Shown here: positions 26,034-56,274 of the stretch, piece by piece
Layout: each line of letters opens with the position of its first letter
How positions within the stretch are numbered: position 1 is the first letter of the stretch
Sequence record: NC_047749.1
Origin: Escherichia phage DT571/2
Strand: one strand, 5' to 3'
DNA: 64,000 nt
The notes under the pieces: generated by a model
Database searches by the model: none
What the model was told of the DNA's origin: nothing
What the model saw: only the letters and a program-made list of their open reading frames with translations
Program-made: the position numbers and the translations under genes

Positions 26034-26045
26034 ATATAAATTGTT

Positions 26046-26245: not shown

Positions 26246-26248
26246 ATT

Positions 26249-26325
26249 TGGTGCGTGACAAGGGATTCGAACCCTCAAAACCCGACTTCTAGGGACGGTA
26301 TGTATGCCAATTCCATCAATCACGC
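26249..26325 (-). tRNA. tRNA, anticodon not confidently assigned (loop CCTAGAA would give UAG)
   Basis: hand fold: CCA, good acceptor and T-arm, anticodon stem with one U-U mismatch, D-arm unclear. Confidence 0.55.
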
Positions 26326-26330
26326 GTATT

Positions 26331-26405
26331 TGGTGGAGAAAGAGGGAGTTGAACCCTCGTCTTCTGCGTGCAAAGCAGATGTTCTACCATTAAACTATAT
26401 CCCCA
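26331..26405 (-). tRNA. tRNA-Ala (anticodon UGC)
   Basis: hand fold: CCA, T-arm GAGGG/TTCAACT/CCCTC, perfect anticodon arm TCTGC-TTTGCAC-GCAGA. Confidence 0.65.
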
Positions 26406-26642
26406 AATTCTTTAGTTTACTAAGGCTATTAGCTCGGCGTAACTACAGCACCTTCACTTCGAGCGGAAGGAACCGCGTCATCTCGCAAACCCGATACACT
26501 ATTCAGTTGCCGCTGAATCTAGTGGACTAATCTAGAACCTCCCCCAAATTGTAGGGATCGTGCTTTTTGGCAGCCAGTCCTAGGTCGAGCTAATACCTTA
26601 GTGAACTATGATGAGGATTTCTCCCCATCAATTTATATAAAT

Positions 26643-26671
26643 ATTATAACAAGAAATTAAGCATCAAGCAA
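26643..26671 (-). promoter_or_regulatory. T5-early-type promoter driving the tRNA cluster
   Basis: RC of TTGCTT-17-TATAAT; no ORF downstream, leads into tRNAs. Confidence 0.55.
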
Positions 26672-26772
26672 ATGAGTTTTTCCTTGAAATTGGTAGCGGG
26701 TTCCAGTACTGCCCTGGACTTACTTAGCTTATGAGACTAAGAAGAACTCTATGCCTTCCACCCGCAATTGTT

Positions 26773-26836
26773 TGGTCAGTGCGGCAGGACTCGAACCTGC
26801 GACCTGAAGCATCCAAGGCTCCCACGCTACGCACTG
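26773..26836 (-). tRNA. atypical 64-nt tRNA-like element (no room for a D-arm)
   Basis: CCA, perfect 7-bp acceptor CAGTGCG/CGCACTG and perfect T-arm GCAGG/TTCGAGT/CCTGC, only 29 nt between them. Confidence 0.4.
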
Positions 26837-26844
26837 AAAGTTTA

Positions 26845-27192
26845 TTAGTTTAACCGTAAAGTATTATCTACTTCACCATTAATTGTTCGGCATTCCTCTG
26901 GGATTGTCGGAGTGGCCTTGTATTCCCACCACTCAGCACCGTCATATTCCCCACGTTCTAGCCAAGTTCCATCGGCAAACCATACATTACCATAAAGTAA
27001 TTGTCCACCGTATCCAGAATCATATTCAAAGTCTAGGTTATTAAGAAAATCCTCAATATCTTCTTCTGTATAACCTAAAGGTAATACCCAGACTTTTTTA
27101 TCCCCATAATACCCGAATTCTATTTTAATACACTTAACTTTAGAATTGGTATTTTTTAAGGCGAGTAATAGCTCTTCTTTAGCATTACGCAT
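26845..27192 (-). CDS. hypothetical protein
   Basis: 115-aa ORF. Confidence 0.55.
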   Translation of the reverse strand: MRNAKEELLLALKNTNSKVKCIKIEFGYYGDKKVWVLPLGYTEEDIEDFLNNLDFEYDSGYGGQLLYGNVWFADGTWLERGEYDGAEWWEYKATPTIPEECRTINGEVDNTLRLN

Positions 27193-27217
27193 AGTATATT
27201 CTCATACTGAGTTAATT

Positions 27218-27291
27218 TGGCGCGACCGATGGGATTTGAACCCACATTCCCCGTGACAGGGGAGTACCATTACCAAGCCAGCCCCTGTCGC
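27218..27291 (-). tRNA. tRNA-Asp (anticodon GUC)
   Basis: hand fold: CCA, T-arm, anticodon loop CTGTCAC. Confidence 0.7.
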
Positions 27292-27300
27292 ATAATTCAT

Positions 27301-27486
27301 TTACTCATATTTGAGTTTTTCAATAGCTGCATTAAGTTCTTTTAGAGCTTCACGACGTTCTACCTGACCTTGAAGTTCTTCAAGAAGTTCCGCTTTCAGA
27401 GTCTCAATAATTTTACCACGAACCTTGATATTATTAATCAGATTATCACGATCAGCTTCTAGTCGAGCAATTGCATGAGTTGTCAT
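27301..27486 (-). CDS. small coiled-coil protein
   Basis: 61-aa ORF. Confidence 0.45.
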   Translation of the reverse strand: MTTHAIARLEADRDNLINNIKVRGKIIETLKAELLEELQGQVERREALKELNAAIEKLKYE

Positions 27487-27513
27487 ATCTATTTCCTCAG
27501 TTATTAATGAAAA

Positions 27514-27586
27514 TGGTATCTGTGGCTGAATTCGATGTCAGCAATGATAGCTGGTTGGCTACCGGTTTACTTAACTCTACACAGAA
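27514..27586 (-). tRNA. tRNA-like element with non-canonical loops (possible pseudo-tRNA)
   Basis: CCA plus 6/7 acceptor pairing, but T-loop and anticodon loop are 8 nt. Confidence 0.3.
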
Positions 27587-27588
27587 TT

Positions 27589-27666
27589 TGGCGGGCCGTG
27601 TAGGATTCGAACCACCAACCCCGAAGGGCACGGATTTACAGACCGCTGCAATAGCCATTCTGCCAA
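27589..27666 (-). tRNA. tRNA-like element with Tyr-like anticodon loop CTGTAAA (degenerate)
   Basis: CCA, weak T-stem, variable-arm hairpin CCC-TTCG-GGG, no acceptor pairing found. Confidence 0.35.
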
Positions 27667-27750
27667 CGATGTATATTTAAAAGTATTCAAATACTTGTTT
27701 AAACACTTTTAAATATGTTTCCAACTTAGATAACTATTATATCTAGGTTT

Positions 27751-27792
27751 AAGGCACTGAGCAAGTCAGATTTTGAAGAATTTGCTCAGTGC
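27751..27792. other. stable hairpin (11-bp stem GCACTGAGCAA / TTGCTCAGTGC)
   Basis: read directly; lies in leader between promoter at 27868 and tRNAs. Confidence 0.6.
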
Positions 27793-27867
27793 TATATTAG
27801 TTAGTCGAACTTAGGAGTAACAATTAAAGAGAATGGGAGTTCGAAAACTTCATCAATTTATATAACT

Positions 27868-27897
27868 ATTATATCAGAAATTTAAAGCAAAAGGCAA
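27868..27897 (-). promoter_or_regulatory. T5-early-type promoter (tRNA leader)
   Basis: RC of TTGCCT-18-TATAAT with conserved leader. Confidence 0.45.
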
Positions 27898-27927
27898 GTA
27901 CTTTTTTAAAAATTCTGTTTGGAGGAG

Positions 27928-28134
27928 CTAAACTCCAGATTCTTCAGCCAAGTCTAGACTAATAAGAGTTATAGCCATAATTGCCGCACCGTGTTCTTTT
28001 TCTCCGGTGTTTTTAGCAGAGTCTATAATACCCTTAATCTGTTCGTAATAACTTTTTACTTCTTGTTCAATGCCGGCCTCGGCTATCATGCCTTTAGTCA
28101 TGAGTCGTTGCATGGTAATTTCACGGTTAGCCAT
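27928..28134 (-). CDS. hypothetical protein
   Basis: 68-aa ORF. Confidence 0.45.
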   Translation of the reverse strand: MANREITMQRLMTKGMIAEAGIEQEVKSYYEQIKGIIDSAKNTGEKEHGAAIMAITLISLDLAEESGV

Positions 28135-28309
28135 GATGTTTCTCCAGTTTCATCTTTAATAGTTTACAAATGAAGTCAATATCTTCATCCGTGCCTAGAT
28201 CTCTATCTTCAAGAGTTGCCTTGAAGTTTTTAGTCAACTCCATAAGGATGACTTCCCTAGAACGACGTGTTGGCGGAGGTGGATGTCTATACATCTTATT
28301 TCCTTAATT

Positions 28310-28384
28310 TGGTGGGTCGGAGGAGAATCTAACTCCTACTCGTTAGCTTATGAGGCCACCGCTTTAACTTTAAGCTACCGACCC
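28310..28384 (-). tRNA. tRNA-Met (anticodon CAU)
   Basis: hand fold: perfect acceptor GGGTCGG/CCGACCC, perfect T-arm, D-stem GCTT/AAGC, loop CTCATAA. Confidence 0.75.
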
Positions 28385-28390
28385 TATGTT

Positions 28391-28479
28391 TGGCGGAAGA
28401 AGCGGGAATCGAACCCACAAGGCTATATTTCAAACCGACAGATTAGCAATCTGCTGCAATACCGTTATGCTATTCTTCC
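28391..28479 (-). tRNA. tRNA-Ser (anticodon GCU), class II
   Basis: hand fold: perfect acceptor GGAAGAA/TTCTTCC, anticodon arm GCAGA-TTGCTAA-TCTGT, long variable arm. Confidence 0.7.
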
Positions 28480-28500
28480 GAATTTATAAGATATATTATA

Positions 28501-29037
28501 TTAGAAATTTAGCTTCATAGCAAGAAAATTTTTCAAGTTTTCGGTAGACATCTCATCCACATCTACAGGAGAAACAAACCCATCTAATTGTCTAGCAAAT
28601 TTTTCACCGGCAGGATCATTATCCCCAACAGCTACCAATTTAAAAGGTAGTAATTTCAATTGCTTTAACAACGCTTTTCCGGGGGAAGAACCCAACATTG
28701 CTAGGGCAGGATAACCAGCATTATGTAATGCTACAGCCTTAAATACAGATTCAGCAATCAATACTACTTTTTCATCCCCATTGAGAGTTTCTAGCCCCCA
28801 TACACACTGTGTGGTAGAATAAGTAAAATATCTAGCTTCAGAGGGGCACTTACCATGACCTTTTGGAGCAGAAGGATTATAAATCTGATAGCCTCTCAGC
28901 ATCCCAGAGAAGTCGTACAATGGGACTGTTAGCCATCCCTCCGGGCTTAACCAGCAATGATATTTATCTGTATCAAACCCTCTGGATAAGAGATGTTCTG
29001 TTAGTTCATCAACAGTCATATTAGATTCCTCTCTCAA
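28501..29037 (-). CDS. small Toprim-like domain protein
   Basis: 178 aa; LIAESVFKA and VAVGDNDPAGEKFA resemble Toprim E and DxD motifs. Confidence 0.5.
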   Translation of the reverse strand: MREESNMTVDELTEHLLSRGFDTDKYHCWLSPEGWLTVPLYDFSGMLRGYQIYNPSAPKGHGKCPSEARYFTYSTTQCVWGLETLNGDEKVVLIAESVFKAVALHNAGYPALAMLGSSPGKALLKQLKLLPFKLVAVGDNDPAGEKFARQLDGFVSPVDVDEMSTENLKNFLAMKLNF

Positions 29038-29048
29038 ATTATAAATAT

Positions 29049-29077
29049 ATTATACAGAGAATTTAGCATTCAAGCAA
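29049..29077 (-). promoter_or_regulatory. T5-early-type promoter
   Basis: RC of TTGCTT-17-TATAAT. Confidence 0.55.
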
Positions 29078-29163
29078 TTGAATTTTTAAACTTTTTAGTG
29101 GAAAATCTCAAGACATTTAATGGCAGCACGTTGTTGCTGTAATAAGAGTATATGGTTCTAAAG

Positions 29164-29206
29164 AACCAAACAATAAAGCCCTGCGCTCTCCAGGGAACGC
29201 AGGGCT
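29164..29206 (-). terminator. rho-independent terminator
   Basis: 9-bp GC-rich stem AGCCCTGCG/CGCAGGGCT followed on the minus strand by a U-rich tract. Confidence 0.65.
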
Positions 29207-29230
29207 TACTTCAGAGATTACATGCGGGTG

Positions 29231-30178
29231 TTATTTGTTACGCATGTCCATGATCATCTGGCCATCGTAACCAGTTCCCACAACTGTTTGCGGTACACCA
29301 CCTTGATACTTCTGAGCACGAATCATTTCAACTTCTAGTTGTTTCCAACGAATCATCTCAGGAGTAATGGTACGTTGCAGAGCGGCGTTAGCCTCAGCTT
29401 CTTTCTTAGCTGCGTACAGTTTAGCATCTGCATCACGTTCGTTTGCAATAGCTTGGTTGTTACGAGCTTCACGATCTGCTTCTGCTTGTTTAACCTTCTG
29501 CTGTGCTTCTTGTTCAACACGAGCCAACTCAGCTTTCGCAGCATTAACTTGTTCTTCACGAACTTTGGTATTCTGTACCTGTTCCATGATTACAGGCGGC
29601 AAAGTAATATCCTGAAGGAACACTTGCTTAACTGTGTAACCATAAGGGCGTGCATACTCTTCAACTTCCTGTTGAATTGCAGTTTGTAATTGAGCCTGAA
29701 TTTTAGCATCAAACAAATCTTGTGCTTTAGGAACAGACTTGCCGAACTCACGAATAGTAGACAGTAATTTTTCAGTTACATATTTGTCTAACGCTTGATC
29801 CTGAGTACCTGCATTAATACGGTTAATCGGTGCCTTAGAACCATCAAATTGTAACATAACAGTCAGGTCAACAGTGGATTTAAACTTATCCTGACTAGGA
29901 ACCTGAAGTTTATCTAATTTTACAGCAATATCTTTTGTACTAAAAGTATCGAAAGATGCAAAGGGGTTTACAAGATGGAAGCCAGGTAATACTGGGTTAG
30001 GATCTACTTTACCAAGAAATGTTTGGGTTTTAACCGTACCATCGGAAACAATAGTATATGAATTAAAAGCTAGGATTAAACCTGCTAAACCAACTACAGC
30101 ACCAATACCCCAACGTTTAATAGTGCGCATTACTTTTTGCTCAGAAGTCAGTTCTTTCATATTTTTAGTATTAAACAT
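29231..30178 (-). CDS. SPFH/band-7 (HflC/prohibitin-like) membrane protein
   Basis: 315 aa; N-terminal TM helix, SPFH-like core, Ala/Glu/Lys-rich coiled-coil tail. Confidence 0.7.
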   Translation of the reverse strand: MFNTKNMKELTSEQKVMRTIKRWGIGAVVGLAGLILAFNSYTIVSDGTVKTQTFLGKVDPNPVLPGFHLVNPFASFDTFSTKDIAVKLDKLQVPSQDKFKSTVDLTVMLQFDGSKAPINRINAGTQDQALDKYVTEKLLSTIREFGKSVPKAQDLFDAKIQAQLQTAIQQEVEEYARPYGYTVKQVFLQDITLPPVIMEQVQNTKVREEQVNAAKAELARVEQEAQQKVKQAEADREARNNQAIANERDADAKLYAAKKEAEANAALQRTITPEMIRWKQLEVEMIRAQKYQGGVPQTVVGTGYDGQMIMDMRNK

Positions 30179-30212
30179 GTATTTCCTTTGTTTTAGTTAC
30201 AGTTAATAAAAT

Positions 30213-30287
30213 TGGCCGAGGTGACAGGATTCGAACCTGCATAAAGGAATTTAGAAGACTCCTGCCTCTCCCTTAGACTACACCCCG
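30213..30287 (-). tRNA. tRNA-Arg (anticodon UCU)
   Basis: hand fold: CCA, acceptor with one G-U, T-arm, anticodon arm GGAGT-CTTCTAA-ATTCC. Confidence 0.65.
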
Positions 30288-30788
30288 TTTAAGTATTTTT
30301 AAGAACTCTCGTAAAAACTCTTAAAAATACAGACGATACCGGGAGAGTCATAAGTCTCACTCATTAAGTATTTCAAGACAAAATACAGTAACGTCTATTA
30401 TTTTCCAGTTTAAGTCAAGGTGACTTAGTGGTTATGCCCTGCGGTATACTGAGGACTCGGTTAGGCTAGGGTCATGACTCCCCGCTTTTTGCTGCTACTC
30501 AACAGGAATTATCGCGAATTACCTGTGCTATTGTGCACCATTAGTGGCATCTCTCATGCCAGCATTTCCCACTTTGTGGATAGTTTGAAAAACTACTCCG
30601 ATATGGAGGGAGAACTTCACTATCCTAGAATACCTTCTAAAGTTCTTCTTTAGCCTGGACATAGTTAAATCGTAATAAAACTATTCAGCAGACTGGTTGG
30701 TTAGCCTGGAACCAACTACCGCGTGGTTTAGGCAGTGCGCAACTAACCTCGGAAGCTTTTACGTTAAAAGCACCAGTTATCCAGTTCT

Positions 30789-30860
30789 TACCGATCGTAG
30801 GATTCGAACCTACATCTTCCACCAGTTACGGCTTGATAATACCGTTTATACTAGATCGGC
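30789..30860 (-). tRNA. tRNA, CCA not encoded, anticodon undetermined
   Basis: perfect T-arm GTAGG/TTCGAAT/CCTAC and 7-bp acceptor with one G-U. Confidence 0.5.
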
Positions 30861-30935
30861 AGTGTTACTACATAAGTGATTTCCACACCCCACTATCAAT
30901 AAATTAGGGAAGAATTACTCTCTAATTTATGAATA

Positions 30936-32102: not shown

Positions 32103-32420
32103 TTACTCCTGCCAATCGTATTCAATACGATTGGGGTTTTCTTTGTATCCCAAGTCAAGCAAATCATTACGCATAGTTTGCTTAGCTACGGGATTCGAGG
32201 TTACTAGTACCACTTTCTTTGGTCTCTGCCCAAATTCTAAGAGTAAACGAAGAATTTGATAACCTTCCATACCATCTACAGCCAAATCGTTGTCGAAATA
32301 AACAAAATGGCCAGTGGTATCAGTCTTATTCAGAAACTCAACAGCGGCTTCTGGGGTTCGAATGATAATGTCCATTCCGTGAAGATTACGCACATCATCA
32401 ATCAAAATATGAAAAGTCAT
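32103..32420 (-). CDS. hypothetical protein
   Basis: 105-aa ORF. Confidence 0.55.
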   Translation of the reverse strand: MTFHILIDDVRNLHGMDIIIRTPEAAVEFLNKTDTTGHFVYFDNDLAVDGMEGYQILRLLLEFGQRPKKVVLVTSNPVAKQTMRNDLLDLGYKENPNRIEYDWQE

Positions 32421-43370: not shown

Positions 43371-45197
43371 ATGACAGAGAATGAATTAATTGAGAATTGC
43401 AAAGGTCTGCTCACTCTAACTGCGGATAAAGACTTACAACATAATAATGCTAATAAGCCTAGTGAGATGTTCCATACTCAAAGAGACTTATTGGCCGGAG
43501 AAATCAACAAGTATCTAGTATCGCAGGAATTACCCAAACATCTATTAGACGCCCATAATCTAGGTAAGATACACATTCATGATATGGATTACAGAGCACA
43601 GGGGTACACTAACTGTTGCTTAGTAGACCTTGGTGGCATGCTGAAGAATGGTACTAAAATTGGTAATGCAAATATTGAAACTCCTAAATCCATAACTACT
43701 GCATGTGCAATCACTGCTCAGATTATTGCACAAGTATCTGGTGCTCAGTATGGTGGCACCTCTATTGATCGTATCGACGAGGTTCTAGCCCCGTATGTCA
43801 GAAAGTCTTACAATAAACATCTGGGTCGTGGTCTACGTTGGCTCAAGGATGAAAGAAAAGCTGCCGTGTACGCTACTGAGCTTACTGAAAAAGAGTGTTA
43901 TGATGCATTCCAAGCCCTAGAGTATGAAACTAATTCATTATTTAACTCTAACGGACAGACTCCTTTTGTTACGCTTGGCTTTGGGCTAGGACAGGGGTGG
44001 GAGGAAAGGATGATTCAGAAAGCCATCCTCCAAAATCGTATTAAAGGTTTAGGTGCTGCTGAGTCAACCCCTATCTTCCCTAAACTAGTATTCTCAGTTA
44101 AAGAAGGATTAAATAAAAATCCAGGCGATCCTAACTACGATATAAAACAGCTAGCACTTGAGTGTTCTGCTACCCGTATGTACCCGGACTATTTAAGTTA
44201 CGAGAAAGTTGTAGCTGTTACTGGTGATTTTAAAGCTCCTATGGGTTGTCGTAGTTTTTTATCTGCTATCCCCTCTGGAGAAATTGCAGGGCGTAATAAT
44301 TTAGGTGTAGTGTCTATCAATCTACCTATGGTTGCTGCTGAGGCAGATGGAGTTTTTGAAGATTTCTGGGATATTCTAGACAAATATGTGGATGAGGCTT
44401 TTGAAGCACATGACTTCTTCTTAAACAGACTGAAGAAAGTTAAGGCTAAACAAGCCCCTATTCTTTATATGCACGGTGGTTTTGGTGTACGTTTAGATGG
44501 GGAAGAGTATGTATGGCCTATTTTTGAAGGTAGATCCTCTGTATCTCTTGGGTATATTGGGGTCTATGAGATGTGTCAAATAATGTTTAGTTTACCACAG
44601 ACTCATAGGGACTGTATTGAATTTACAGAGGAGGTTCTCACTCACCTAAAAAATCGTTGCGAAGTTAAAGCTAATGAGACTAATCTTGGGTTTAGCTTGT
44701 ATGCAACTCCTAGTGAGTCTCTATGTAATCGCTTTAATAAACTACTGGAACGTAGGTTCCCTGAGTATTCTTGGCTAACAGATAAAGGTTATCTCACTAA
44801 TAGTCATCATTTGGACGTAAGGGAGAAGGTAGCTCCAGATACTAAATTTGAGTATGAAGCTCATTTCACCAAAATAGCTAATGGTGGTAATATATCATTT
44901 GTGGAACTACCACAAATGAAAAAGTTCCATAAAGCTCTTGAATACGTAGTAGATAAGGGACTAGAATGTAGCCATTATATTGGTGTTAATATACCGATTG
45001 ATGAGTGCTTCAACTGTGGGTATATGGGTGAATCTGTTGCCTCTGAACGTGGGTTTGTATGTCCGAGTTGTGGATCTGAAGAAATAGAGGTTACACGTAG
45101 GGTTTGCGGGTACCTGGGGTCCCCGGGCAGTAGGCCTTTCAATTCTGGGAAACAAAAAGAAGTGCTTGGTAGAGTAAAACACTTAAATCTTAAGTAA
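43371..45197 (+). CDS. nrdD: anaerobic ribonucleoside-triphosphate reductase
   Basis: 608 aa; C-terminal glycyl-radical motif RVCGYLG and zinc ribbon CFNCGY...CPSCGS. Confidence 0.9.
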   Translation: MTENELIENCKGLLTLTADKDLQHNNANKPSEMFHTQRDLLAGEINKYLVSQELPKHLLDAHNLGKIHIHDMDYRAQGYTNCCLVDLGGMLKNGTKIGNANIETPKSITTACAITAQIIAQVSGAQYGGTSIDRIDEVLAPYVRKSYNKHLGRGLRWLKDERKAAVYATELTEKECYDAFQALEYETNSLFNSNGQTPFVTLGFGLGQGWEERMIQKAILQNRIKGLGAAESTPIFPKLVFSVKEGLNKNPGDPNYDIKQLALECSATRMYPDYLSYEKVVAVTGDFKAPMGCRSFLSAIPSGEIAGRNNLGVVSINLPMVAAEADGVFEDFWDILDKYVDEAFEAHDFFLNRLKKVKAKQAPILYMHGGFGVRLDGEEYVWPIFEGRSSVSLGYIGVYEMCQIMFSLPQTHRDCIEFTEEVLTHLKNRCEVKANETNLGFSLYATPSESLCNRFNKLLERRFPEYSWLTDKGYLTNSHHLDVREKVAPDTKFEYEAHFTKIANGGNISFVELPQMKKFHKALEYVVDKGLECSHYIGVNIPIDECFNCGYMGESVASERGFVCPSCGSEEIEVTRRVCGYLGSPGSRPFNSGKQKEVLGRVKHLNLK

Positions 45198-45204
45198 GCT
45201 AATC

Positions 45205-45240
45205 AGCCAGGTTGCTAGTCGACCTGGCTTTTATTTTATT
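45205..45240 (+). terminator. rho-independent terminator after nrdD
   Basis: 8-bp stem AGCCAGGT/ACCTGGCT then TTTTATTTTATT. Confidence 0.7.
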
Positions 45241-45268
45241 TGCTTTCAGCCAAAAATTTATATATAAT
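45240..45268 (+). promoter_or_regulatory. T5-early-type promoter
   Basis: TTGCTT-17-TATAAT then GAGAGG leader. Confidence 0.6.
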
Positions 45269-45296
45269 AGATTTGTAAATTTGAGAGGAGAAAGCT

Positions 45297-45509
45297 ATGA
45301 GGATTCATAAGGTAGATAAAGATCGTATCTATTTTGTTATGGACTCCGGAGCATATGGATCTATTCTAAGAGAAGATGTTACTAAATTTTGCTTAATAAA
45401 TACTTGGATGGATAAGGAGAAGATTGACCCTAGATCAGGCATATGCTTATCGGAACCAGCTCTTTTAATTGCAAATGCAGAAATTGAATTGTTTGAGGAC
45501 ATAGAATGA
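45297..45509 (+). CDS. hypothetical protein
   Basis: 70-aa ORF. Confidence 0.5.
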   Translation: MRIHKVDKDRIYFVMDSGAYGSILREDVTKFCLINTWMDKEKIDPRSGICLSEPALLIANAEIELFEDIE

Positions 45510-45736
45510 AAAACGTAAAACACCTTAAATATCGCTTAATTTATAACGGACGTATGGAAACAGAAGAGCTAGCTCAATTAGCTATTAACTCTAATGAGGT
45601 TATGGTGCGTGCGCTAGCAATTGAAAAGTTGCGTGCTTCTTATGAAAGCCGTATTATGCGGCTGGAGGAAACCCTTTATGGACTTCTTGAATCAGAAGCT
45701 AGAAGCAACCCAGAGGACAGGCCTACTAAGCAATAG
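45506..45736 (+). CDS. hypothetical protein
   Basis: 76-aa ORF. Confidence 0.5.
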   Translation: MKNVKHLKYRLIYNGRMETEELAQLAINSNEVMVRALAIEKLRASYESRIMRLEETLYGLLESEARSNPEDRPTKQ

Positions 45737-45789
45737 AAGGTATGTATATAGGGAGTAATTTTACCTCAAAACATTATCGAAGGATTTAA

Positions 45790-46629
45790 GTGAGGAATTG
45801 TACAGTGCGTAGATTAATTATTATTAGCGGTGCAGGTTTGAGTGTTGAAAGTGGTGTACGAGCCTTCCGTACTGATACTGCTAGTGGTAAAGCATTGTGG
45901 GATGATTATGATCTAGAAGAAGTATGTAATATTCATGCCTTTCGGGGTAATTTTTACCATAAAACCCACACGTTTTACAACAAACGTCGTGAAGAGTTAG
46001 AAACTGTTGAACCCAATCTTGCACACTTGCGTATTGGTGAATGGTATAAGAAATACCCAGGTCAAGTAGTAAACTTGACTACTAACGTTGATGATCTTAT
46101 TGAGCGTGCTGGCGTTCCACATAGTGACATTCTGCACATTCATGGATACTTAAAGGAGGTTGTTGTAGCTGATAGCTACAACAGTAGTAATAAACGAATT
46201 ATTGATGTTGGGTATAACTCTATTGACCCAGATGATTATAAATGGGTTAAACCTAATGTAGTCTTCTTTGGTGAGCATGCTCCAGCGTACGCAGAAATGT
46301 ATAATATTTTTGATGGTATTACCAGTCAAGATATGATCATTATGGTTGGTTGCTCTAACCAAGTAATTAACTTCTACTGGGAATTATTCCCTGTTCTTAA
46401 TCTGACTGCTGCAAAACTTATGGTGGTTAACTACTACGATAGTGCTCTAGCGGTGGGACCAGGCTATCAAGGTATGACTCGTAGTGAGATGTACCAACTG
46501 GAAGAACGGGGTATTCCTTACTGGGGTAAAGGTGCGGTAGATGCTTTCAGTGACCCTGATTTTATTGCTCGTGTGGAAGCCCATCTAGAGGGTAGACCTT
46601 ATATGCCGGGAAAACAGATATGTCCATAG
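45790..46629 (+). CDS. Sir2-family (sirtuin-like) NAD-binding protein
   Basis: 279 aa; GAGLSVESGVRAFR, TTNVDDL, HIHGYL, VVFFGE; no zinc-ribbon Cys. Confidence 0.75.
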   Translation: MRNCTVRRLIIISGAGLSVESGVRAFRTDTASGKALWDDYDLEEVCNIHAFRGNFYHKTHTFYNKRREELETVEPNLAHLRIGEWYKKYPGQVVNLTTNVDDLIERAGVPHSDILHIHGYLKEVVVADSYNSSNKRIIDVGYNSIDPDDYKWVKPNVVFFGEHAPAYAEMYNIFDGITSQDMIIMVGCSNQVINFYWELFPVLNLTAAKLMVVNYYDSALAVGPGYQGMTRSEMYQLEERGIPYWGKGAVDAFSDPDFIARVEAHLEGRPYMPGKQICP

Positions 46630-46802
46630 TTAAATCTGTGTATACACATCCCGATGATATATTTGTATGGGCGGATGGTAGTTGGTGTTATCGATGTGAG
46701 TTATGGGAAATGGACTATAAATCCGATGACTATGGTGTCATATATGTTGATACGGTTGAGTATGATATGTTCTTAGAAAGGAACAAAAATGGAAATAAGT
46801 AA
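46620..46802 (+). CDS. hypothetical protein
   Basis: 60-aa ORF. Confidence 0.45.
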   Translation: MSIVKSVYTHPDDIFVWADGSWCYRCELWEMDYKSDDYGVIYVDTVEYDMFLERNKNGNK

Positions 46803-47295
46803 TACTCCAATTATTTTTCTAGACATTGATGGGGTGCTCAACTCGAGCATCTCCCATCACCATGCACCTGATGATGAAAAGATTTTCTTTGGAAGTGACT
46901 GGGTTTTTAAACCGCTTCTCAAGGCTTTTCAGGACTTTATTCGTCCTTCTCCAATAATGATTGTTGGGGTATCTTCATGGTTCTCTGTCAGGAATGAGGT
47001 GGAGAACGTTCAGATTATGACCAGATTAGATCTTATCGATCGTTTTCTTGGTATAACGGATTTTACTGGTGGTGGGCTATCTAGGGGTAATTCTGTTCTT
47101 CGCTTCGTCGAAAAGCATAAGCTCAAACATTGGTGTGTGCTGGATGATGCTGGTGCTATGATGTATCAGTATCCAACAGTTATAGTCAACGGTAGAACTG
47201 GAATAAATCTTCAAGACTTAAGAGCTGTTAGCTATATGTTAGAATTTAGTCCAGATCTTGAAATGTGTAAAGCCCTACAACAATTTAAGGTGTAA
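46789..47295 (+). CDS. HAD-like hydrolase
   Basis: 168 aa; motif I FLDIDGVLN, later VLDDAG. Confidence 0.6.
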   Translation: MEISNTPIIFLDIDGVLNSSISHHHAPDDEKIFFGSDWVFKPLLKAFQDFIRPSPIMIVGVSSWFSVRNEVENVQIMTRLDLIDRFLGITDFTGGGLSRGNSVLRFVEKHKLKHWCVLDDAGAMMYQYPTVIVNGRTGINLQDLRAVSYMLEFSPDLEMCKALQQFKV

Positions 47296-47297
47296 AT

Positions 47298-47726
47298 ATG
47301 TTCAATAATGTATTCTCTAAAGAAGCTAACCCAATATTGGTTAATTTTTGGCGTACTCTTCCAGCCAACCTGTACAATGAGGCTATTAATGCTCTGAAAA
47401 TATGGTGTGAGAATAATGAAATCTCCTTTGCTTTTAAGGATGAGATTGAAGAAGCTCCCTGTATTGGTTTAATTGTGCAGGTAGAGGATGGCTTTGAAGA
47501 GATTATCGGATGGAAAGAGCTGGATGAAATGGGATTGGTTTTTGCATTAAACTATAAGCTATTTATGCCCAATAAACACCGTATTGTTGTTAATTATAAA
47601 ACCAGTGAATCTCCGGGCTTTCAAGTTAATGAACATTACGGTTGGTCTTACTCACCGGAAGAAGTAAATGATGGTATCCAAAGACTTCGTCGTTTTGGTT
47701 ATCAAATTCCGGGTTTAACCGCCTAA
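47298..47726 (+). CDS. hypothetical protein, tandem paralog A
   Basis: 142 aa; shares blocks with the next ORF. Confidence 0.55.
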   Translation: MFNNVFSKEANPILVNFWRTLPANLYNEAINALKIWCENNEISFAFKDEIEEAPCIGLIVQVEDGFEEIIGWKELDEMGLVFALNYKLFMPNKHRIVVNYKTSESPGFQVNEHYGWSYSPEEVNDGIQRLRRFGYQIPGLTA

Positions 47727-47735
47727 GGGGACACA

Positions 47736-48128
47736 ATGGAACAAGTATATTGGCGTCAGATTGATCCTAGTTTGGTGAAGAGTGCGGAGAAGCTGCTACA
47801 ACGTTGGTTGGGGGTAAGACAAGCCTCCTTCACTTTTCCGGAGCAGCAAATAGACGATCCCTGTGTTGGTGTTTTCCTATCAGGCTACGCTAGGGAAGTG
47901 GAATTGGATTGGAATGAATTGTCTGCTATGGGTTTAATTGTTGCACTAAATTTCTCTTTGTTCCATCCACGTGGGTTGGCAATATGTCGTGTGCCTGATG
48001 ACGGTTGTTCGCCCCATCTTTTACAGGTGGAAGATGATATTTGGGAGTACCCTCCAGATATTCTCAAAGAAGCTAAAGAACAATTAAATCGTGTTGGGAT
48101 TTATGTTCCAGGCCTGAATGATGAATGA
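47736..48128 (+). CDS. hypothetical protein, tandem paralog B
   Basis: 130 aa; similar to upstream ORF. Confidence 0.55.
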   Translation: MEQVYWRQIDPSLVKSAEKLLQRWLGVRQASFTFPEQQIDDPCVGVFLSGYAREVELDWNELSAMGLIVALNFSLFHPRGLAICRVPDDGCSPHLLQVEDDIWEYPPDILKEAKEQLNRVGIYVPGLNDE

Positions 48129-48219
48129 TTTTTATTAGCTGAACTCTGATTACCGAGTCATTTTGGCTCGGTTTTCTCTATGCTCAAAGACACTGGTAGC
48201 AGCCCCTGGAAAAATTTAC

Positions 48220-48248
48220 TTGCTTGATGCTCAAAATCTTGATATAAT
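48220..48248 (+). promoter_or_regulatory. T5-early-type promoter with no ORF for about 600 nt
   Basis: TTGCTT-17-TATAAT plus leader AATTGAGAGAC but no start codon. Confidence 0.6.
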
Positions 48249-48842
48249 ATTTATATTGAATTGAGAGACATTAGTAAAAATTGATTTTGCTAATTTTTCT
48301 TAGTGAAGCTGACAAGGGATTTACGGCGAGAGGAATCGATGACCCGTAAATAGCTGCATAAGGTACGTTGCTAGAGCTTTACGAAAAAGTTTTTTCTTGT
48401 TTACAATCCGCGATACGGAACAGTTAGGCTGCCCCATTAAGGGTTGTTTTAACTATTACTAGTGTTTATATTGCATTAGTTAACCTTCAATTAAGTGATC
48501 TGTGTACCCTGAATTCGGAAAGGTAAATCCAAACCGTGCATATTTAGCTCGTTATATAGGCAGAGCTTTATATGGGGGTGCGAACGAAAAGAGCAGCGAA
48601 TGGCGGCACGTACAGTAGTCACCTACCAATAGGATAGTGAGGACAAGTAGAATCGGCTTAGCGGCCAATGACCTAGGTTCTATTCTGTATAAGAGCGAAG
48701 AGAGCACAGCACTGAGATATGATAACTTATTCATATTGTTTGATGATAATTGATGTTTACGTAAATAGTAGTAATAGTTGTTCTATTCTTTCTGAATAGT
48801 CCTAAAGAAAAGATTTCGATTAACCAACACAGGAGTATTATT

Positions 48843-51632
48843 GTGTTTTCTATCCTCCAAGGTCACGCCGGGTTTTCTCGTGATTTAGCAACAGGTATTT
48901 GGCGAGAAATCAAAGCGGGAGATTATACCTTTGCCAAGCGATTCTCGAAAGAGCATCCAGAAGGTAAACCAGCTTCTATGCCCTTCAAATTTGATGTAAT
49001 AGAAGAGCACGACCCACAAAGCCTTGCAGAAATGTTACCACTTATGAGACGTTTAACGTCTGACCCTCATATCGTTGCGGTACGAGGTCGATGTCTTGCA
49101 CCTAAAAATAATGTGCGACGTAAGAAAGATAACTTTAATGTATCTAATCCTAGTAATATTATTGCTATGGACGTGGATGGTATCCTAGATACCGGTGGGT
49201 ACGACAAATTTAATCTTGTTGGTATGGCCCGCCACATTATTAAGATGTTGAATAGTATTAGTGAGGATATGTTTCCTCTTGATGCAGGCTTTATAGCTCA
49301 TGCATCATCTTCGGCTGGGCTAAAACCAGGTATCCGAATGCACTTAATACTAGAATCTAACGTCAAGGTAACTCAGGGTCAGCTAAAGTTCTTATTTACA
49401 TCTATCAATGATAGTAGTAAGCAAAAATTTGGTTTTGATATTGCCGACCTAGCTTATTACTCATCTGTCCAGCTCCACTATTTTGCCGACCCCTTATTTA
49501 GCGATGGTATTGTTGATCCGTTTAAAGCGGAGAGTAAGCCACGTCTGGTGTATGTTAAAGGCTCAAAAGTAAACTTACCTAATAATCTAGTTGACTATGA
49601 AACAACTAGAGGAGAGTTTAAAGAGGAATTCTACTCTTTACTCGATCAAATTAAAGGCAAAAAGATTGCTTCTGATAAAGTAGAAGAAACCATCAGCGAG
49701 TTAGAAGAGGCTGATGATGGAGTGTACTTGCGTATTATCCCCAAACTATACCATAGAGCATTAGAGGATGGTGTTGATTTTGAATGGCTAGAACGTGAGA
49801 TTAAACCAGCTTTATCTGAATATATTGCAACTAAAGATAACAGTCGTAATATTCAAGATTACTTTAATAACGGTCGCAAGCAGGCTCTCAAAGCGTTTGT
49901 TAATAATTCTAAACGTGAGATTCCACCAAATCTGAAAGGTGTTCCACTTAAGAAATTAGAAGTGGATTCTCCACCAGAAGTTCCGTACCTGAAGATTAAC
50001 ATTGTGCCCCCAAAAGGTCATATAACATTTGTTAAGGCAAGTCTTGGTACGGGTAAAACTACGGCAGTAACTAAATGGCTGGACGCAGGTGTTCTTCCGG
50101 GCAACTTTTTAGCAGTTACAAATACTAGAGCACTGGTATCTTCAAATGCCAAGAAATTTAGTGCAGGACAATACGATAAGTCTGTAGATATGCTCAACTT
50201 TAAACGTGGGGCTATTGATCGTATGTCCACAACTATTCACTCTTTGCATAAGTTCAAAAGTTTTATTGGGCAAATAGACACCATTTTTATTGATGAATGT
50301 GACGCTGTAATGAATGACCTATTATTCGCCCCTGTTGTTAAACAACGTCGCGAGTGTATTCAAGTTCTACGTGACATCCTCATGACAGCTAAGACTGTAA
50401 TCTTATCCGATGGTGATATTAGTGCGGAAACAATTGAAGCATATGGTTCTTTGATTGAGTTCGATAAACCAGTTGCATTTTACAATCACCACCGTAAAAT
50501 GTTATCAAAGGCTCATGCTTATGAATTCCCTGATGAATCCAGTATTTGGGTTGCACTTCAGACTTCTCTAGAGATGGGTGAGAAATCTATTCTAGTATCT
50601 GATTGTGGTCCTGATGAGCTGAATGAGAAGGGTATGGCACTACGTCGTAATACTGGTGCATTAGTTAAAGAAATCCATTCAAACTCCACTTCAGATGTGG
50701 ATATTCGACGTATTCTGGATTATACAACTAATGAGCTAATTGATCAACAAATTGATTGCTTATTATGTAGTCCATCCGTAACGAGTGGAGTTGACTTTAA
50801 CTATTTTGATAACGTATTTGTTATTACTAGAACCAGTAATCAGGCGCCAAACATGCGTTTTCAAGCAATCAGGCGCGACCGTGGTGCTCAGAATATCTAT
50901 TATTTTATTGATAAATCCACTAGTGGATTCTCTGCGGGTTCTGAACAATATAATATCGATGAAGGTTGGCTGGAGTTAGCACAGCAATTATATGCACGTC
51001 GCAGGGAGCTGGAGTCTAGGAACTATACTAGTACTTTACGTTATTACTTGCTTGATCAGGGTGCAACTATTGATATTTTCAGTGAAAGCTGGGGAACTAT
51101 TGAAGGTGCTGGTAAAGAATACACAGAAGAGCGAATCAAAGCTATTCTACATTCAACTCCTGATTATTGTGCTCCACGTCATGCGGATGCGTATGAGGCT
51201 AAACTACTTATTGTTCGCTATTATCATCTTGAGTCTATTAAAGATGTAACAGTTGAGCATGTTGAACAATATATCAAAGATAAGCCGAATGATCGAGCTG
51301 CATTCTTCCATAAGATGCACGAGATGTTCTGGGAAGATATTAAGAAGTGTTCAAATGTGACCATTAAACCATTCATAGAAGCTCTGAAAGGTAAGAAGAA
51401 AGATTTCTTCCTTAAAACAGGTCAGAGTGCTAACCCAAAATATGCTAGAATGTATCTTGGTATGATGGGTATTGGTAAAGATATGAACACGGAGAATATC
51501 GTAGACTGGTATAGAACCTACTGCAAAATCGAATGTATGCCAATCCCTCTCAAATTCATGACTGAAGAAGAGAAGGCTATGGCAGAAGAAGCAATGTCAG
51601 AACTAGGTGCTAGAAATGACAGTGAAGAATAA
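48843..51632 (+). CDS. large P-loop NTPase, helicase or origin-binding-like (GTG start)
   Basis: 929 aa; Walker A GTGKTT, Walker B IDECD; AGGAG SD before GTG. Confidence 0.7.
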   Translation: MFSILQGHAGFSRDLATGIWREIKAGDYTFAKRFSKEHPEGKPASMPFKFDVIEEHDPQSLAEMLPLMRRLTSDPHIVAVRGRCLAPKNNVRRKKDNFNVSNPSNIIAMDVDGILDTGGYDKFNLVGMARHIIKMLNSISEDMFPLDAGFIAHASSSAGLKPGIRMHLILESNVKVTQGQLKFLFTSINDSSKQKFGFDIADLAYYSSVQLHYFADPLFSDGIVDPFKAESKPRLVYVKGSKVNLPNNLVDYETTRGEFKEEFYSLLDQIKGKKIASDKVEETISELEEADDGVYLRIIPKLYHRALEDGVDFEWLEREIKPALSEYIATKDNSRNIQDYFNNGRKQALKAFVNNSKREIPPNLKGVPLKKLEVDSPPEVPYLKINIVPPKGHITFVKASLGTGKTTAVTKWLDAGVLPGNFLAVTNTRALVSSNAKKFSAGQYDKSVDMLNFKRGAIDRMSTTIHSLHKFKSFIGQIDTIFIDECDAVMNDLLFAPVVKQRRECIQVLRDILMTAKTVILSDGDISAETIEAYGSLIEFDKPVAFYNHHRKMLSKAHAYEFPDESSIWVALQTSLEMGEKSILVSDCGPDELNEKGMALRRNTGALVKEIHSNSTSDVDIRRILDYTTNELIDQQIDCLLCSPSVTSGVDFNYFDNVFVITRTSNQAPNMRFQAIRRDRGAQNIYYFIDKSTSGFSAGSEQYNIDEGWLELAQQLYARRRELESRNYTSTLRYYLLDQGATIDIFSESWGTIEGAGKEYTEERIKAILHSTPDYCAPRHADAYEAKLLIVRYYHLESIKDVTVEHVEQYIKDKPNDRAAFFHKMHEMFWEDIKKCSNVTIKPFIEALKGKKKDFFLKTGQSANPKYARMYLGMMGIGKDMNTENIVDWYRTYCKIECMPIPLKFMTEEEKAMAEEAMSELGARNDSEE

Positions 51633-54112: not shown

Positions 54113-54328
54113 ATGAGAGGATCAATCATGGCAATGACAATAACACTTCCCAAGATTCAAGCAAAACTTAATCTACTTTCCACAGCACGCATTAATTATC
54201 AAGATAACATAGGCACAGTAAATCAAAAGGCGTACAAAGATGCGTTTCTGAAAGAATCTGCTGATTTGATGGATATGGTTACACAATATAATAAAGAACT
54301 CAAGATGGAAATCGCCGATGATGACTAA
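54113..54328 (+). CDS. hypothetical protein (true start probably ATG at 54128)
   Basis: first ATG lies inside the RBS-like TAATGAGAGG leader. Confidence 0.5.
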   Translation: MRGSIMAMTITLPKIQAKLNLLSTARINYQDNIGTVNQKAYKDAFLKESADLMDMVTQYNKELKMEIADDD

Positions 54329-55292
54329 TGTAAAAGAATTTATTAAACGCTGTCAAGAAGCATATTATCAAGGCATGTCTTTAATCTCTGATGAAGAATA
54401 TGATCGCCTGGTAAAACGCTTCCCGTTAGAGGAAGAGATCGGGCCTAAGGGTGATATTCCACATCTATACCGTATGTATTCTTTACAGAAAGTTTATTAT
54501 AATCGTGGAGATAAACCCCCATTTAACCCGTTAGGTCAAGTAGAAACTGATAAGTTAGATGGTTGTGCAATTTCCCTGCTATATATTAATGGCGAATTTG
54601 TTCAAGCACTAACTCGTGGTAATGGTATTCTGGGAAATGATGTCACAAGCAACGTAAGATTGCTGAACATCCCTAAAAAGATTTCTCAAAAAGTACCTAC
54701 TCAAATCACTGGTGAAGTTCTAATTACAAAAGAAGTAGAAAATAAACGTAACTTTGCCTCTGGTGCTATTAACCTCAAAGATAGTGATGATTTCGTACAG
54801 CGTATCGGGGAAGGTGGTTTAATCTTCGTTGCATACGGTATCCAGTGTTCTGCTGAATCTGTAGGTATTACAGAAGCGTATTTAAAAGATATGCTTTGGC
54901 TAGAGAATGAGAACTTCTTAACAGTTGTTAATGTACGTTCCTTCTTTAAATGGATTCCAACGGACGGTAAAGTTGTTCGTATTAATGATAACAACAAATT
55001 CTTCCGTGAAGGCTGGACTAATAAATTTCCTCGCGGTGCATTTGCTATTAAAGAGGATGAAGAAGGTGAGACTACAACTCTTACTAAAGTTGAATGGAAT
55101 GTAGGGGCTTCTGGTAAAGTAACTCCAGTCGGTTATTTTGAACCAGTAATTATTGATGATGCTACAATTGTTAAAGCGACTCTTAATAACGTTGATTATA
55201 TTAACTCTCTCGATCTAGAGATCGGTTGCCAGATTCGAGTGATTCGTGCTGGTGGTGTAATCCCGTGCATAGTAGAACGAGTATACGATTAA
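54318..55292 (+). CDS. NAD-dependent DNA ligase, N-terminal adenylation part
   Basis: 324 aa; adenylation motif KxDG (ETDKLDGCAIS). Confidence 0.8.
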   Translation: MMTNVKEFIKRCQEAYYQGMSLISDEEYDRLVKRFPLEEEIGPKGDIPHLYRMYSLQKVYYNRGDKPPFNPLGQVETDKLDGCAISLLYINGEFVQALTRGNGILGNDVTSNVRLLNIPKKISQKVPTQITGEVLITKEVENKRNFASGAINLKDSDDFVQRIGEGGLIFVAYGIQCSAESVGITEAYLKDMLWLENENFLTVVNVRSFFKWIPTDGKVVRINDNNKFFREGWTNKFPRGAFAIKEDEEGETTTLTKVEWNVGASGKVTPVGYFEPVIIDDATIVKATLNNVDYINSLDLEIGCQIRVIRAGGVIPCIVERVYD

Positions 55293-55491: not shown

Positions 55492-56274
55492 TTGATGAAA
55501 ATCGAAATTCCAACACAATGTCCCTCTTGTGGTTCTAAGCTAGATCTTGTCAACGGACAATTATTCTGTCGTAATAAGTCCAACTGTCCAGCGCAATCAA
55601 GTAAGTTAATTGAGAACTTCTGTACAAAAATGAAGTTAAAGGGCTTTGGCCCGAAAACTATTGAGAAGCTGGAGCTGACGAAGATTTCAGAACTATTTTA
55701 CCTAACCGAAGAAGATTTGGTTAGAGCCGTGGGTAGCAAGGTTGCCGCTAAGTTAATTAGCGAATTAAATACTAAAGTTCGCGGAGACATTGACTTTGGT
55801 TCAGTTCTCGGTTCTTTAGGAATCCCTCTAATTGGAGAGGTTGCAGCAAAGAAATTATCCCAAAATTGCACTAGCTTCCACGATGTGAAGGCTGACGGCA
55901 AGGCTGGAGAAAACTATAAAGCCTGGCTAAATTCCCCACAAGGCAAGGATGTTATCGAATTACCGTGGAAATTCTCAAATGGTATTAAAGGTGCTAAAGC
56001 TGACATCATCATTACAGATGAATTAGTTGCCCCGCCAAATGGAATCACGGTGTGTATTACCGGATCTTTGCAAGATTTTGCAAATCGAACGGATGCAACA
56101 AACTATCTAGAAGGTCTAGGGTATACTGTTAAAAAATCAGTTACCAAAGACGTTAAATACCTCATCTGTGAGGATGAATCTAAGCGTTCTTCCTCATCTT
56201 ATAAGAAAGCCGAAACGAATGGGATAGAAATCCTGTCGATTAAAGAACTATTGGAGAAAAATAATAATGTCTAA
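55492..56274 (+). CDS. NAD-dependent DNA ligase, C-terminal part (Zn finger, HhH, BRCT-like)
   Basis: 260 aa; four-Cys zinc finger CPSCGS...CRNKSNC. Confidence 0.8.
   Translation: MMKIEIPTQCPSCGSKLDLVNGQLFCRNKSNCPAQSSKLIENFCTKMKLKGFGPKTIEKLELTKISELFYLTEEDLVRAVGSKVAAKLISELNTKVRGDIDFGSVLGSLGIPLIGEVAAKKLSQNCTSFHDVKADGKAGENYKAWLNSPQGKDVIELPWKFSNGIKGAKADIIITDELVAPPNGITVCITGSLQDFANRTDATNYLEGLGYTVKKSVTKDVKYLICEDESKRSSSSYKKAETNGIEILSIKELLEKNNNV

Follow-up and report, generated by a model that had tools for sequence, protein, structure and literature searches.

An early operon of T5-like phages encodes a sirtuin, a HAD phosphatase and small proteins

We analysed a 64,000-nucleotide stretch of the genome of Escherichia phage DT571/2 (record NC_047749.1; hereafter the window), and in it a gene cluster at positions 45790-48128 that encodes a sirtuin (Sir2-family protein), a HAD-superfamily phosphatase and a tandem pair of small paralogues. 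The phage is T5-like, with about 94% DNA identity to T5. Around the cluster, 3.7 kb of DNA is 94-95% identical to coliphage T5, to Bf23 and to many Tequintavirus genomes of Salmonella and Escherichia phages. Positions 45790-48128 are the counterpart of T5 genes T5.102-T5.107, and with the small open reading frames (ORFs) upstream the operon corresponds to T5.100 to T5.107. The T5 reference record places these genes between nrdD and the gene for the origin-binding helicase, with an annotated promoter and terminator on either side, and T5.102 carries the annotation 'Sir2 (NAD-dependent deacetylase)'. Judged by this comparison, the cluster is a known, annotated T5 gene cluster and is not new as a sequence feature. 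The features of the operon, all on the plus strand, are as follows.

45205..45229 (+): terminator-like hairpin at the end of the upstream nrdD transcript; 10-bp GC-rich stem, then a T-run; a T5 terminator is annotated at the homologous site
45240..45268 (+): T5-type sigma-70 promoter, TTGCTT-17 nt-TATAAT, driving the operon; read from the sequence, with a T5 promoter at the homologous position
45297..45509 (+): 70-residue ORF, gene 1 of the operon; phrog_20147, E = 6e-45; T5.100 region; no family in a Pfam search
45506..45736 (+): 76-residue ORF, homologue of T5.101; phrog_5236, E = 3e-44; overlaps the stop codon of the preceding ORF
45805..46629 (+) (listed ORF from 45790): phage-clade sirtuin, class III/CobB-like, without the zinc module; PF02146, E = 1e-24
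46620..46802 (+): 60-residue protein, translationally coupled to the sirtuin, homologue of T5.104; phrog_5116, E = 1e-29
46789..47295 (+): HAD-superfamily phosphatase of the 'Swiss-army-knife' type HAD_SAK_2, 168 residues; PF18143, E = 2e-20
47298..47726 (+): DUF7415 paralogue A, 142 residues; PF24187, 113 bits, E = 7e-33
47736..48128 (+): DUF7415 paralogue B, 130 residues; PF24187, 107 bits, E = 5e-31
48152..48172 (+): terminator-like hairpin closing the operon; 9-bp stem, then a T-run; a T5 terminator is annotated at the homologous position

Co-transcription of the ORFs at 45297-48128 as one promoter-to-terminator unit is supported by the flanking hairpins, by the T5-type promoter, by ORFs that overlap or abut and by the inclusion of the two leading small ORFs in a single unit. 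The promoter had been overlooked by a consensus scan; its -35 element fits only three of the six positions. An earlier, sequence-only reading of the window had proposed that the sirtuin gene is co-transcribed with a HAD hydrolase and a tandem paralogue pair in an early operon, and the promoter, the hairpins, the overlaps and the intact HAD motifs bear this out. It did not include the 60-residue ORF, whose first nucleotides also close the sirtuin gene and whose last ones open the HAD gene. Homologues are present in hundreds of phage records (992 for the sirtuin, 512 for the HAD protein and 522 for DUF7415), and the cluster ORFs are therefore real genes. The most likely start codon of the sirtuin is the GTG at 45805 (MRRLI..., 274 residues) rather than that at 45790 (279 residues), since all homologues begin MRRL and a GAGGAA Shine-Dalgarno sequence lies at 45792-45797. 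Residue numbers below follow the 279-residue ORF.

Two observations concern the surroundings of these genes. T5 itself (L001 5556-5914; L numbers designate sequences compared with the window) has two tandem, weakly similar small ORFs after the sirtuin, T5.103 and T5.104, where the window has one. Downstream of the operon, 670 nt without a convincing ORF (48173-48842) separate its terminator from the origin-binding helicase gene. They match no Rfam family and contain a T5-type promoter (TTGCTT-17-TATAAT) at about 48220-48250, and could be a long leader, an RNA gene or replication-origin sequence. An Rfam search of 45100-49000 gave one weak, chance-level match only.

The sirtuin belongs to a phage-specific clade without zinc ligands

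The sirtuin matches the Pfam SIR2 family PF02146 with 87.9 bits (gathering cut-off 24) over profile positions 1-178 of 180. All of the motifs quoted in the sequence-only reading (GAGLSVESG..FR, TNVDDL, HG (as HIHG) and VVFFGE in the sirtuin, FLDIDGVL in the HAD protein) were found again, as were all the ORFs, at the stated coordinates. Across 24 aligned phage homologues G14-A15-G16, S18, F26-R27, Y63/R66/R67, N99, D101 and H118-G119 are invariant, and the NAD-binding GAGxS...FR motif, the N/D motif and the catalytic histidine H118 align with the equivalent residues of E. coli CobB. Indeed, CobB (1s5p) is the best sequence relative of solved structure (E = 1e-17), followed by archaeal Sir2-Af and SIRT5. 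An AlphaFold model of the phage protein (predicted local distance difference test score, pLDDT, 87.6) likewise found CobB 1s5p as its best Foldseek match (E = 6.5e-18; template-modelling (TM) score 0.85, normalised to CobB), and lysine-deacylase sirtuins make up the whole of its top 50 structural neighbours.

In the window sirtuin nothing corresponds to the zinc cysteines of CobB (RCSQS...CHCCQF). They are also missing from all 24 homologues and from seven others aligned separately, which include those of Sugarland, contig L009, V5-like phages, Henunavirus, GAP32 and Vibrio phages, so that the absence of zinc-ribbon cysteines, already remarked on in the sequence-only reading, extends to the whole phage clade. 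In classical sirtuins the zinc module helps to shape the peptide-binding cleft.

A second element of the active site is retained. The segment FY63NKR66R of the phage protein aligns with FY92NAR95R of CobB, the Y-x-x-R motif; the CobB numbering assumed here agrees with mutation names in PDB titles at A76, Y92, I131 and V187, but not at V162. It is through this Tyr/Arg pair that CobB and SIRT5 hold the carboxylate of a succinyl- or malonyl-lysine. The motif is invariant in the 24-sequence alignment, and among the seven further phage sirtuins the sole exception is GAP32, in which the arginine is replaced by methionine. Because Y-x-x-R, the catalytic histidine and the NAD motifs are all retained in the clade, an anionic substrate fits, and the pocket looks built for an anionic group.

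The candidates that lay closest to hand were both rejected. NCBIfam matched the sirtuin to CobB-type deacylase models only, all below cut-off (NF001753, 100.3 bits against 243; NF040867, 89.3 against 320), and we therefore set aside a housekeeping CobB orthologue. A PADLOC scan (5027 defence models, E <= 0.01) gave no match to the sirtuin or to any of the five proteins, and on that ground the defence-SIR2 candidate was dropped; in Pfam, PF02146 stood alone, with no second SIR2-type family at E <= 1. Scoring far below the CobB cut-offs and lacking any PADLOC match, the protein is neither a housekeeping CobB nor a defence-type SIR2. On these alignments and profiles it belongs to a phage-specific, zinc-less clade, which has been seen solely in phages and phage-like contigs, the 992 phage records comprising T5-like, V5-like, Mydo-like and phi92-like phages, KVP40-like Vibrio phages and jumbo phages.

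Orthologous sirtuins lie among RNA-end enzymes

The window sirtuin is 57-59% identical, over about 95% of its length, to orthologues in EmilHeitz (Vequintavirus) and Ro1 (Mydovirus). In EmilHeitz the sirtuin gene (57% identical) follows genes for an RNA ligase (PF09511) and a cyclic-phosphate processing receiver-domain protein (cREC; PF20274), and a P-loop kinase (AAA_33) and a calcineurin-like metallophosphoesterase are transcribed divergently from this operon. In Ro1 the order is phosphoesterase ... RNA ligase-cREC-kinase-sirtuin-DNA ligase. Henunavirus pEp_SNUABM_01 has the same RNA ligase/cREC/sirtuin operon, here back to back with an operon of the NARP1 type described below. In the jumbo phage GAP32 the order is Nampt ... 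a 148-residue gene annotated 'RNA ligase', a small ORF, the sirtuin and Nudix; the 148-residue product is presumably a 2H-type enzyme.

Such neighbourhoods were reported by Iyer et al. 2022 (Iyer, Burroughs, Anantharaman, Aravind; Viruses 14:1977; PMC9503650), who described a sirtuin with a SAK-like HAD neighbour, with Escherichia phage SP15 as the type example; 2H, Nudix, cREC and PIN neighbours in jumbo phages; and, in V5/Mydo phages, a T4-like RNA ligase, cREC, nucleotide kinase, MazG and calcineurin-like phosphoesterase. They predicted that the sirtuin strips 2'-phosphates from RNA in the manner of KptA, its partners preparing the RNA end or, as a second option, processing ADP-ribose cyclic phosphate. 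SP15 is a T5-like phage and has the same cluster, and its HAD protein is 97.6% identical to that of the window. In both, the HAD_SAK_2 gene lies in the same operon as the sirtuin, in the window 160 nt downstream of it. A Pfam search found no Macro domain in the operon.

Searching the window by tblastn with the EmilHeitz cREC, encoded there between the RNA ligase and sirtuin genes, identified a further candidate. It is listed here with a split ligase gene considered later.

32103..32420 (-): cREC protein (cyclic-phosphate processing receiver domain), 105 residues; PF20274, E = 9e-15, 55.5 bits (cut-off 27)
54318-55292 (+): NAD+-dependent DNA ligase, adenylation and OB part, 6-8 kb downstream of the operon
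55492-56274 (+): HhH/BRCT part of the same split ligase, in a second ORF about 200 nt from the first

The cREC gene is a possible pathway partner of the sirtuin and HAD genes, although it is unlinked to them, lying 13 kb from the operon beside the tRNA gene region and adjoining a cell-wall hydrolase gene. That region comprises 11 clustered tRNA genes (24894-30861, minus strand), of which one, called as tRNA-Ser, has the unusual anticodon ACT (30788-30861).

The HAD phosphatase has homologues upstream of NAD+-rebuilding genes

The HAD protein matches the Pfam family HAD_SAK_2 (PF18143, 'HAD domain in Swiss Army Knife RNA repair proteins') with 73.8 bits against a cut-off of 27.5. Motifs I-IV are kept in eight homologues, as FLDIDGVLN (DxDG), VSSW, GGGxxRG and (I/L)(D/E)D, and the enzyme is accordingly predicted to be catalytically intact. 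A PDB sequence search found no solved relative. Its names in the databases vary: some recent records label it 'RNA repair protein', and many RefSeq records 'Sir2 (NAD-dependent deacetylase)', which no profile or fold result obtained here supports. The DUF7415 proteins are similarly called 'exonuclease', 'tail protein' or 'tail tube protein' in several GenBank records, again with no profile or fold support, and we discarded the 'exonuclease' label for that reason. These names look like propagated annotation errors.

Homologues that are 36-43% identical to the window HAD protein, with equal motifs, are encoded directly upstream of Prs-like (Adps) and Nampt-like (Namat) genes. The order HAD-Adps-Namat occurs in Acinetobacter phage ABPH49, in Serratia phages Kashira and ChuuTotoro and in metagenomic contig L010, and in ABPH49 and ChuuTotoro the HAD gene overlaps Adps by 4 nt. 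The HAD gene and the Adps/Namat pair are located as follows.

L012 4001-7222: Acinetobacter phage ABPH49
L011 7001-10217: Serratia phage ChuuTotoro
L010 7001-10519: metagenomic contig

Adps and Namat together are the hallmark of NARP1, a pathway that regenerates NAD+ from ADP-ribose (ADPR) and nicotinamide (Osterman et al. 2024 preprint). Some such operons (NARP1-AP) also carry a Macro-domain ADPR-1''-phosphate phosphatase, Adpp, directed against RES-type NAD+ phosphorolysis (Osterman et al. 2026 preprint). The linkage of HAD to NARP1 is mentioned in neither preprint, and the 2026 preprint names no HAD; the position of the HAD gene upstream of NARP1 genes appears to be a new observation. When 145.6 of the 147.4 kb of ChuuTotoro were scanned, no homologue of the sirtuin, cREC, DUF7415 or Rnl1 was found, and the HAD protein therefore works there without a sirtuin. 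ABPH49 Adps and Namat had no tblastn match in the window, which is part of the phage genome.

Since the same HAD family stands beside the sirtuin and beside NARP1 genes, the role that we favour, as the simplest to fit both neighbourhoods, is that of a phosphatase acting on phosphorylated ADP-ribose, which matches the second option of Iyer et al. 2022. The dedicated ADPR-1''-phosphate phosphatase of NARP1-AP operons provides a precedent, and the HAD protein may be the counterpart of that Macro-type Adpp. Alternatively, it could act as an NADP+ phosphatase or an RNA-end phosphatase.

The T4-like Aeromonas phage Aeh1 (L020 10958-13519) has denA and the RNA ligase 1 gene rnlA between genes for a HAD homologue (Aeh1p322) and for a single-unit DUF7415 protein (Aeh1p318), all on one strand; 7 kb from this locus is a gene for an NMN (nicotinamide mononucleotide) adenylyltransferase/Nudix protein.

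The accessory genes and the conservation of the cluster

The T5-like genomes compared share one locus, from PhoH/nrdD to the origin-binding helicase gene, with the following gene orders.

This window and T5: small ORFs - sirtuin - 60-residue ORF - HAD - two DUF7415 genes
Sugarlandvirus: 70-residue ORF - sirtuin - 54-residue ORF - two DUF7415 genes; no HAD
Contig L009 (113 kb): 118-residue ORF - sirtuin - one DUF7415 gene; no HAD
Contigs L006 and L007: HAD - small ORF(s) - sirtuin - ORF of about 60 residues; after nrdD

L006 has no DUF7415 gene at the locus, and the L007 sequence ends just past the ORF of about 60 residues. In both contigs the order of HAD and sirtuin is reversed relative to the window, and the HAD proteins are about 40% identical to that of the window. 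That the linkage outlasts this reversal argues for a coupling of the two genes. The steadiest companion of the sirtuin is the protein of about 60 residues, a homologue of which is encoded directly after it in T5, Sugarland (E = 5e-14) and L006 (E = 6e-4).

The DUF7415 paralogues are 31% identical to each other (E = 6e-20) and match PF24187 with 113 and 107 bits (cut-off 27), each in two stretches. Pfam thus suggested an internal repeat, which BLASTP of the two halves did not confirm. One of five modelling runs gave a good structure (pLDDT 85.7, the others 39-57), which agrees with independent BFVD models of family members (TM 0.8-0.9). A BFVD fold search with this model returned other DUF7415 proteins only and no recognisable fold relative. 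Most invariant positions of the family are hydrophobic or carry glycine, a pattern that suggests a part in binding or scaffolding rather than in catalysis.

The two-unit form of DUF7415 is limited to T5-like phages and rare overall; an exhaustive profile search recovered it in 55 clusters among 1.84 billion representatives. In one of these (metagenomic contig L008 1230-2777; 515 residues) an N-terminal DUF7415 unit is joined with a thymidylate-kinase-like P-loop domain; no other multi-domain protein with DUF7415 was found. Single units are present in 834 phage records, next to rnlA in Aeh1 and next to nrdD in T4-like Klebsiella phages. We considered DUF7415 as an RNA-repair adaptor on account of its rnlA neighbour in Aeh1, and set this aside since single units are widespread and also occur beside nrdD. 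An hhalign comparison of DUF7415 with the unannotated neighbours of the V5-type sirtuin gave a probability of 0.2%.

A model for the sirtuin operon

What the sequences show directly is which genes these are, how the operon is organised, that the catalytic motifs are intact, that zinc ligands have been lost throughout the clade and which genes lie nearby. From these observations we infer the substrate and chemistry of the sirtuin and any link to defence. The explanation that we put forward tentatively, holding it as somewhat short of an even chance, is an early operon of T5-like phages built round a zinc-less, class III-like sirtuin that would remove 2'-phosphate from RNA at the expense of NAD+, with the HAD protein clearing the by-product. 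In this model the sirtuin would move ADP-ribose from NAD+ onto a negatively charged group, the likeliest target being an RNA 2'-phosphate on cut and re-joined tRNA or other RNA. The phosphate would be released as ADP-ribose 1'',2''-cyclic phosphate, as with Tpt1/KptA; a cyclic phosphodiesterase, for example a phage cREC, would first open the ring, and the co-encoded HAD enzyme would then most likely clear the phosphorylated ADP-ribose. As an alternative step, the HAD protein might trim terminal phosphates of RNA. The 60-residue protein and the two DUF7415 paralogues would be lineage-specific accessories.

The case for an RNA-end/ADP-ribose role rests on the orthologues encoded in operons with RNA ligase 1, cREC, kinase and phosphoesterase. 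The neighbours in GAP32, the prediction of Iyer et al. 2022, the HAD linkage maintained through a reversal of gene order, the cREC gene of the window and the Y-x-x-R motif point the same way.

Several observations weigh against this explanation. The closest characterised relatives of the sirtuin are protein lysine deacylases, and literature searches found no experimental work on T5 or other phage sirtuins. The RNA ligase, kinase and phosphoesterase of the V5-type operon have no tblastn match in the window, and with neither an RNA ligase nor a polynucleotide kinase found there, the window encodes no complete heal-and-seal pathway. By organism tallies, T5-like phages appear essentially absent from the 814 phage records with an Rnl1-type ligase. 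Ligation by E. coli RtcB leaves no 2'-phosphate, so that the source of the proposed substrate is in doubt. Moreover, each partner is dispensable in some lineage: the sirtuin occurs without HAD in Sugarland and L009, and HAD without the sirtuin in ChuuTotoro. In T4-like phages such as Rgz1 and Aeromonas phage 25 the HAD gene stands among unrelated genes, and its neighbours in these two belong to no Pfam family. Finally, all T5-like cases come from a single syntenic locus, so that common descent and not selection may account for part of the linkage.

The sirtuin could instead remove acyl groups from protein lysines, probably as a desuccinylase or demalonylase of the CobB and SIRT5 kind, and so reprogramme host or phage proteins early in infection, with the other genes as functionally unrelated neighbours. 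E. coli CobB and SIRT5 come closest to it in both sequence and fold, the only NCBIfam models it hits are of the CobB type, the acidic-acyl motif and catalytic histidine are kept, and the T5 record and many other phage records annotate it so. However, the clade has lost all four cysteines of a module that forms part of the peptide cleft in classical sirtuins, the scores of 100 and 89 bits fall far short of the respective CobB equivalog cut-offs of 243 and 320 bits, and RNA-end/ADP-ribose enzyme neighbourhoods in at least four phage groups would be left unexplained; we regard a deacylase as a contender, albeit a rather unlikely one. There might also be no functional module, and the genes would be independent accessories that happen to share a plastic early region bounded by nrdD and the gene for the origin-binding helicase. 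The varying gene content of this locus among T5-like lineages (Sugarland, L009, L006), the record counts for sirtuin (992) and HAD (512) and the single-unit DUF7415 genes in 834 phage records, including T4-like phages with the gene beside nrdD or rnlA, speak for this. We consider it unlikely, because the HAD-sirtuin linkage is kept through a change of order and down to about 40% HAD identity, because the ORFs overlap as expected of translational coupling, and because in other phage families each of the two has an independent association with NAD/ADP-ribose or RNA-end enzymes.

The sequence-only reading had compared the sirtuin with the SIR2 NADase domains of bacterial defence systems, and had suggested a defence-like NADase, or a free ADP-ribosyltransferase, that serves host takeover or blunts NAD-dependent defences, with HAD processing the products. 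NAD+ is indeed a central battleground between phages and bacteria (Osterman et al. preprints), the zinc site is gone, the gene is expressed early and the HAD family is elsewhere linked to NAD+ reconstitution genes, so that NAD+/ADP-ribose chemistry remains a sensible theme. The resemblance to defence NADases, by contrast, did not survive: PADLOC found no defence SIR2, Pfam gave PF02146 only at E <= 1, the top 50 structural neighbours are deacylases without exception and include no defence SIR2, and Y-x-x-R is kept. The protein has a single domain, with no sensor or partner (SLOG, HerA, pAgo, TIR or a large C-terminal sensor), and the window revealed no NAD+-rebuilding genes. In addition, the phage encodes its own NAD+-dependent DNA ligase, which argues against wholesale destruction of NAD+, as a drain would hurt its own replication. 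We therefore judge this explanation highly improbable. The description of the cluster as an undescribed system must also be withdrawn, since T5.102-T5.107 are annotated in T5 records and both the neighbourhood and a predicted function appear in Iyer et al. 2022.

Relation to known systems

The operon does not differ in kind from the SP15 clade of Iyer et al. 2022, which has the same neighbourhood, an orthologous sirtuin and no Macro partner. The function given there is a computational prediction, and the text does not mention the 60-residue protein, the DUF7415 pair, the unlinked cREC or the HAD-NARP1 linkage. With CobB and SIRT5 the phage sirtuin shares the Rossmann fold, the GAGxS and FR motifs, the catalytic histidine and Y-x-x-R; it differs in lacking the four zinc cysteines, in being only about 25% identical in structural alignment and in its genomic partners.

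The proposed pathway would parallel that of yeast tRNA splicing, in which Tpt1/KptA removes the 2'-phosphate, Cpd1 opens the cyclic phosphate and Poa1p dephosphorylates ADPR-1''-phosphate. The phage candidates for the three steps would be the sirtuin, cREC and the HAD protein, each non-homologous to its yeast equivalent, so that the likeness lies in proposed function only. Tpt1 has the ADP-ribosyltransferase (ART) fold, Cpd1 is a 2H protein and Poa1p a Macro-domain protein. With its Rossmann fold, the window sirtuin is not a member of the KptA/Tpt1 family, which has the ART fold.

NARP1-AP operons (Adps - Adpp - Namat; Osterman et al. 2026 preprint) similarly contain a phage phosphatase within an NAD+/ADP-ribose operon, but their Adpp is a Macro domain and not a HAD protein, whereas the T5-like HAD protein partners a sirtuin. 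The defence SIR2 NADases (ThsA, DSR1/2, SIR2-HerA and SIR2-pAgo) share the superfamily and the use of NAD+ as substrate; they belong, however, to another Pfam family and have sensor or partner domains, while the phage sirtuin comes from a lytic phage that needs NAD+ for its ligase.

A more far-reaching proposal, which we regard as speculative and rather doubtful, would make the sirtuin the first in its superfamily shown to act on a phosphate and not an acyl group, a non-homologous substitute for Tpt1/KptA, and HAD_SAK_2 a second, non-Macro ADP-ribose-phosphate phosphatase. The latter would serve the sirtuin pathway in T5-like phages, or NARP1 in Serratia and Acinetobacter phages resembling Vequintavirinae, and would recover usable ADP-ribose from the phosphorylated form that RNA repair or RES-type defences produce.

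Neither the sequence of the cluster nor a predicted function for it is new; in our assessment, the HAD-NARP1 link adds a concrete and testable hypothesis. With its genes directly upstream of NARP1, the HAD family may supply another kind of ADP-ribose-phosphate phosphatase to the arms race over NAD+. T5-like phages counter tRNA-cutting defences with tRNA genes of their own. If true, removal of RNA 2'-phosphates by the sirtuin would be a new phage answer to such defences, and would represent a new class of reaction for a heavily studied family.

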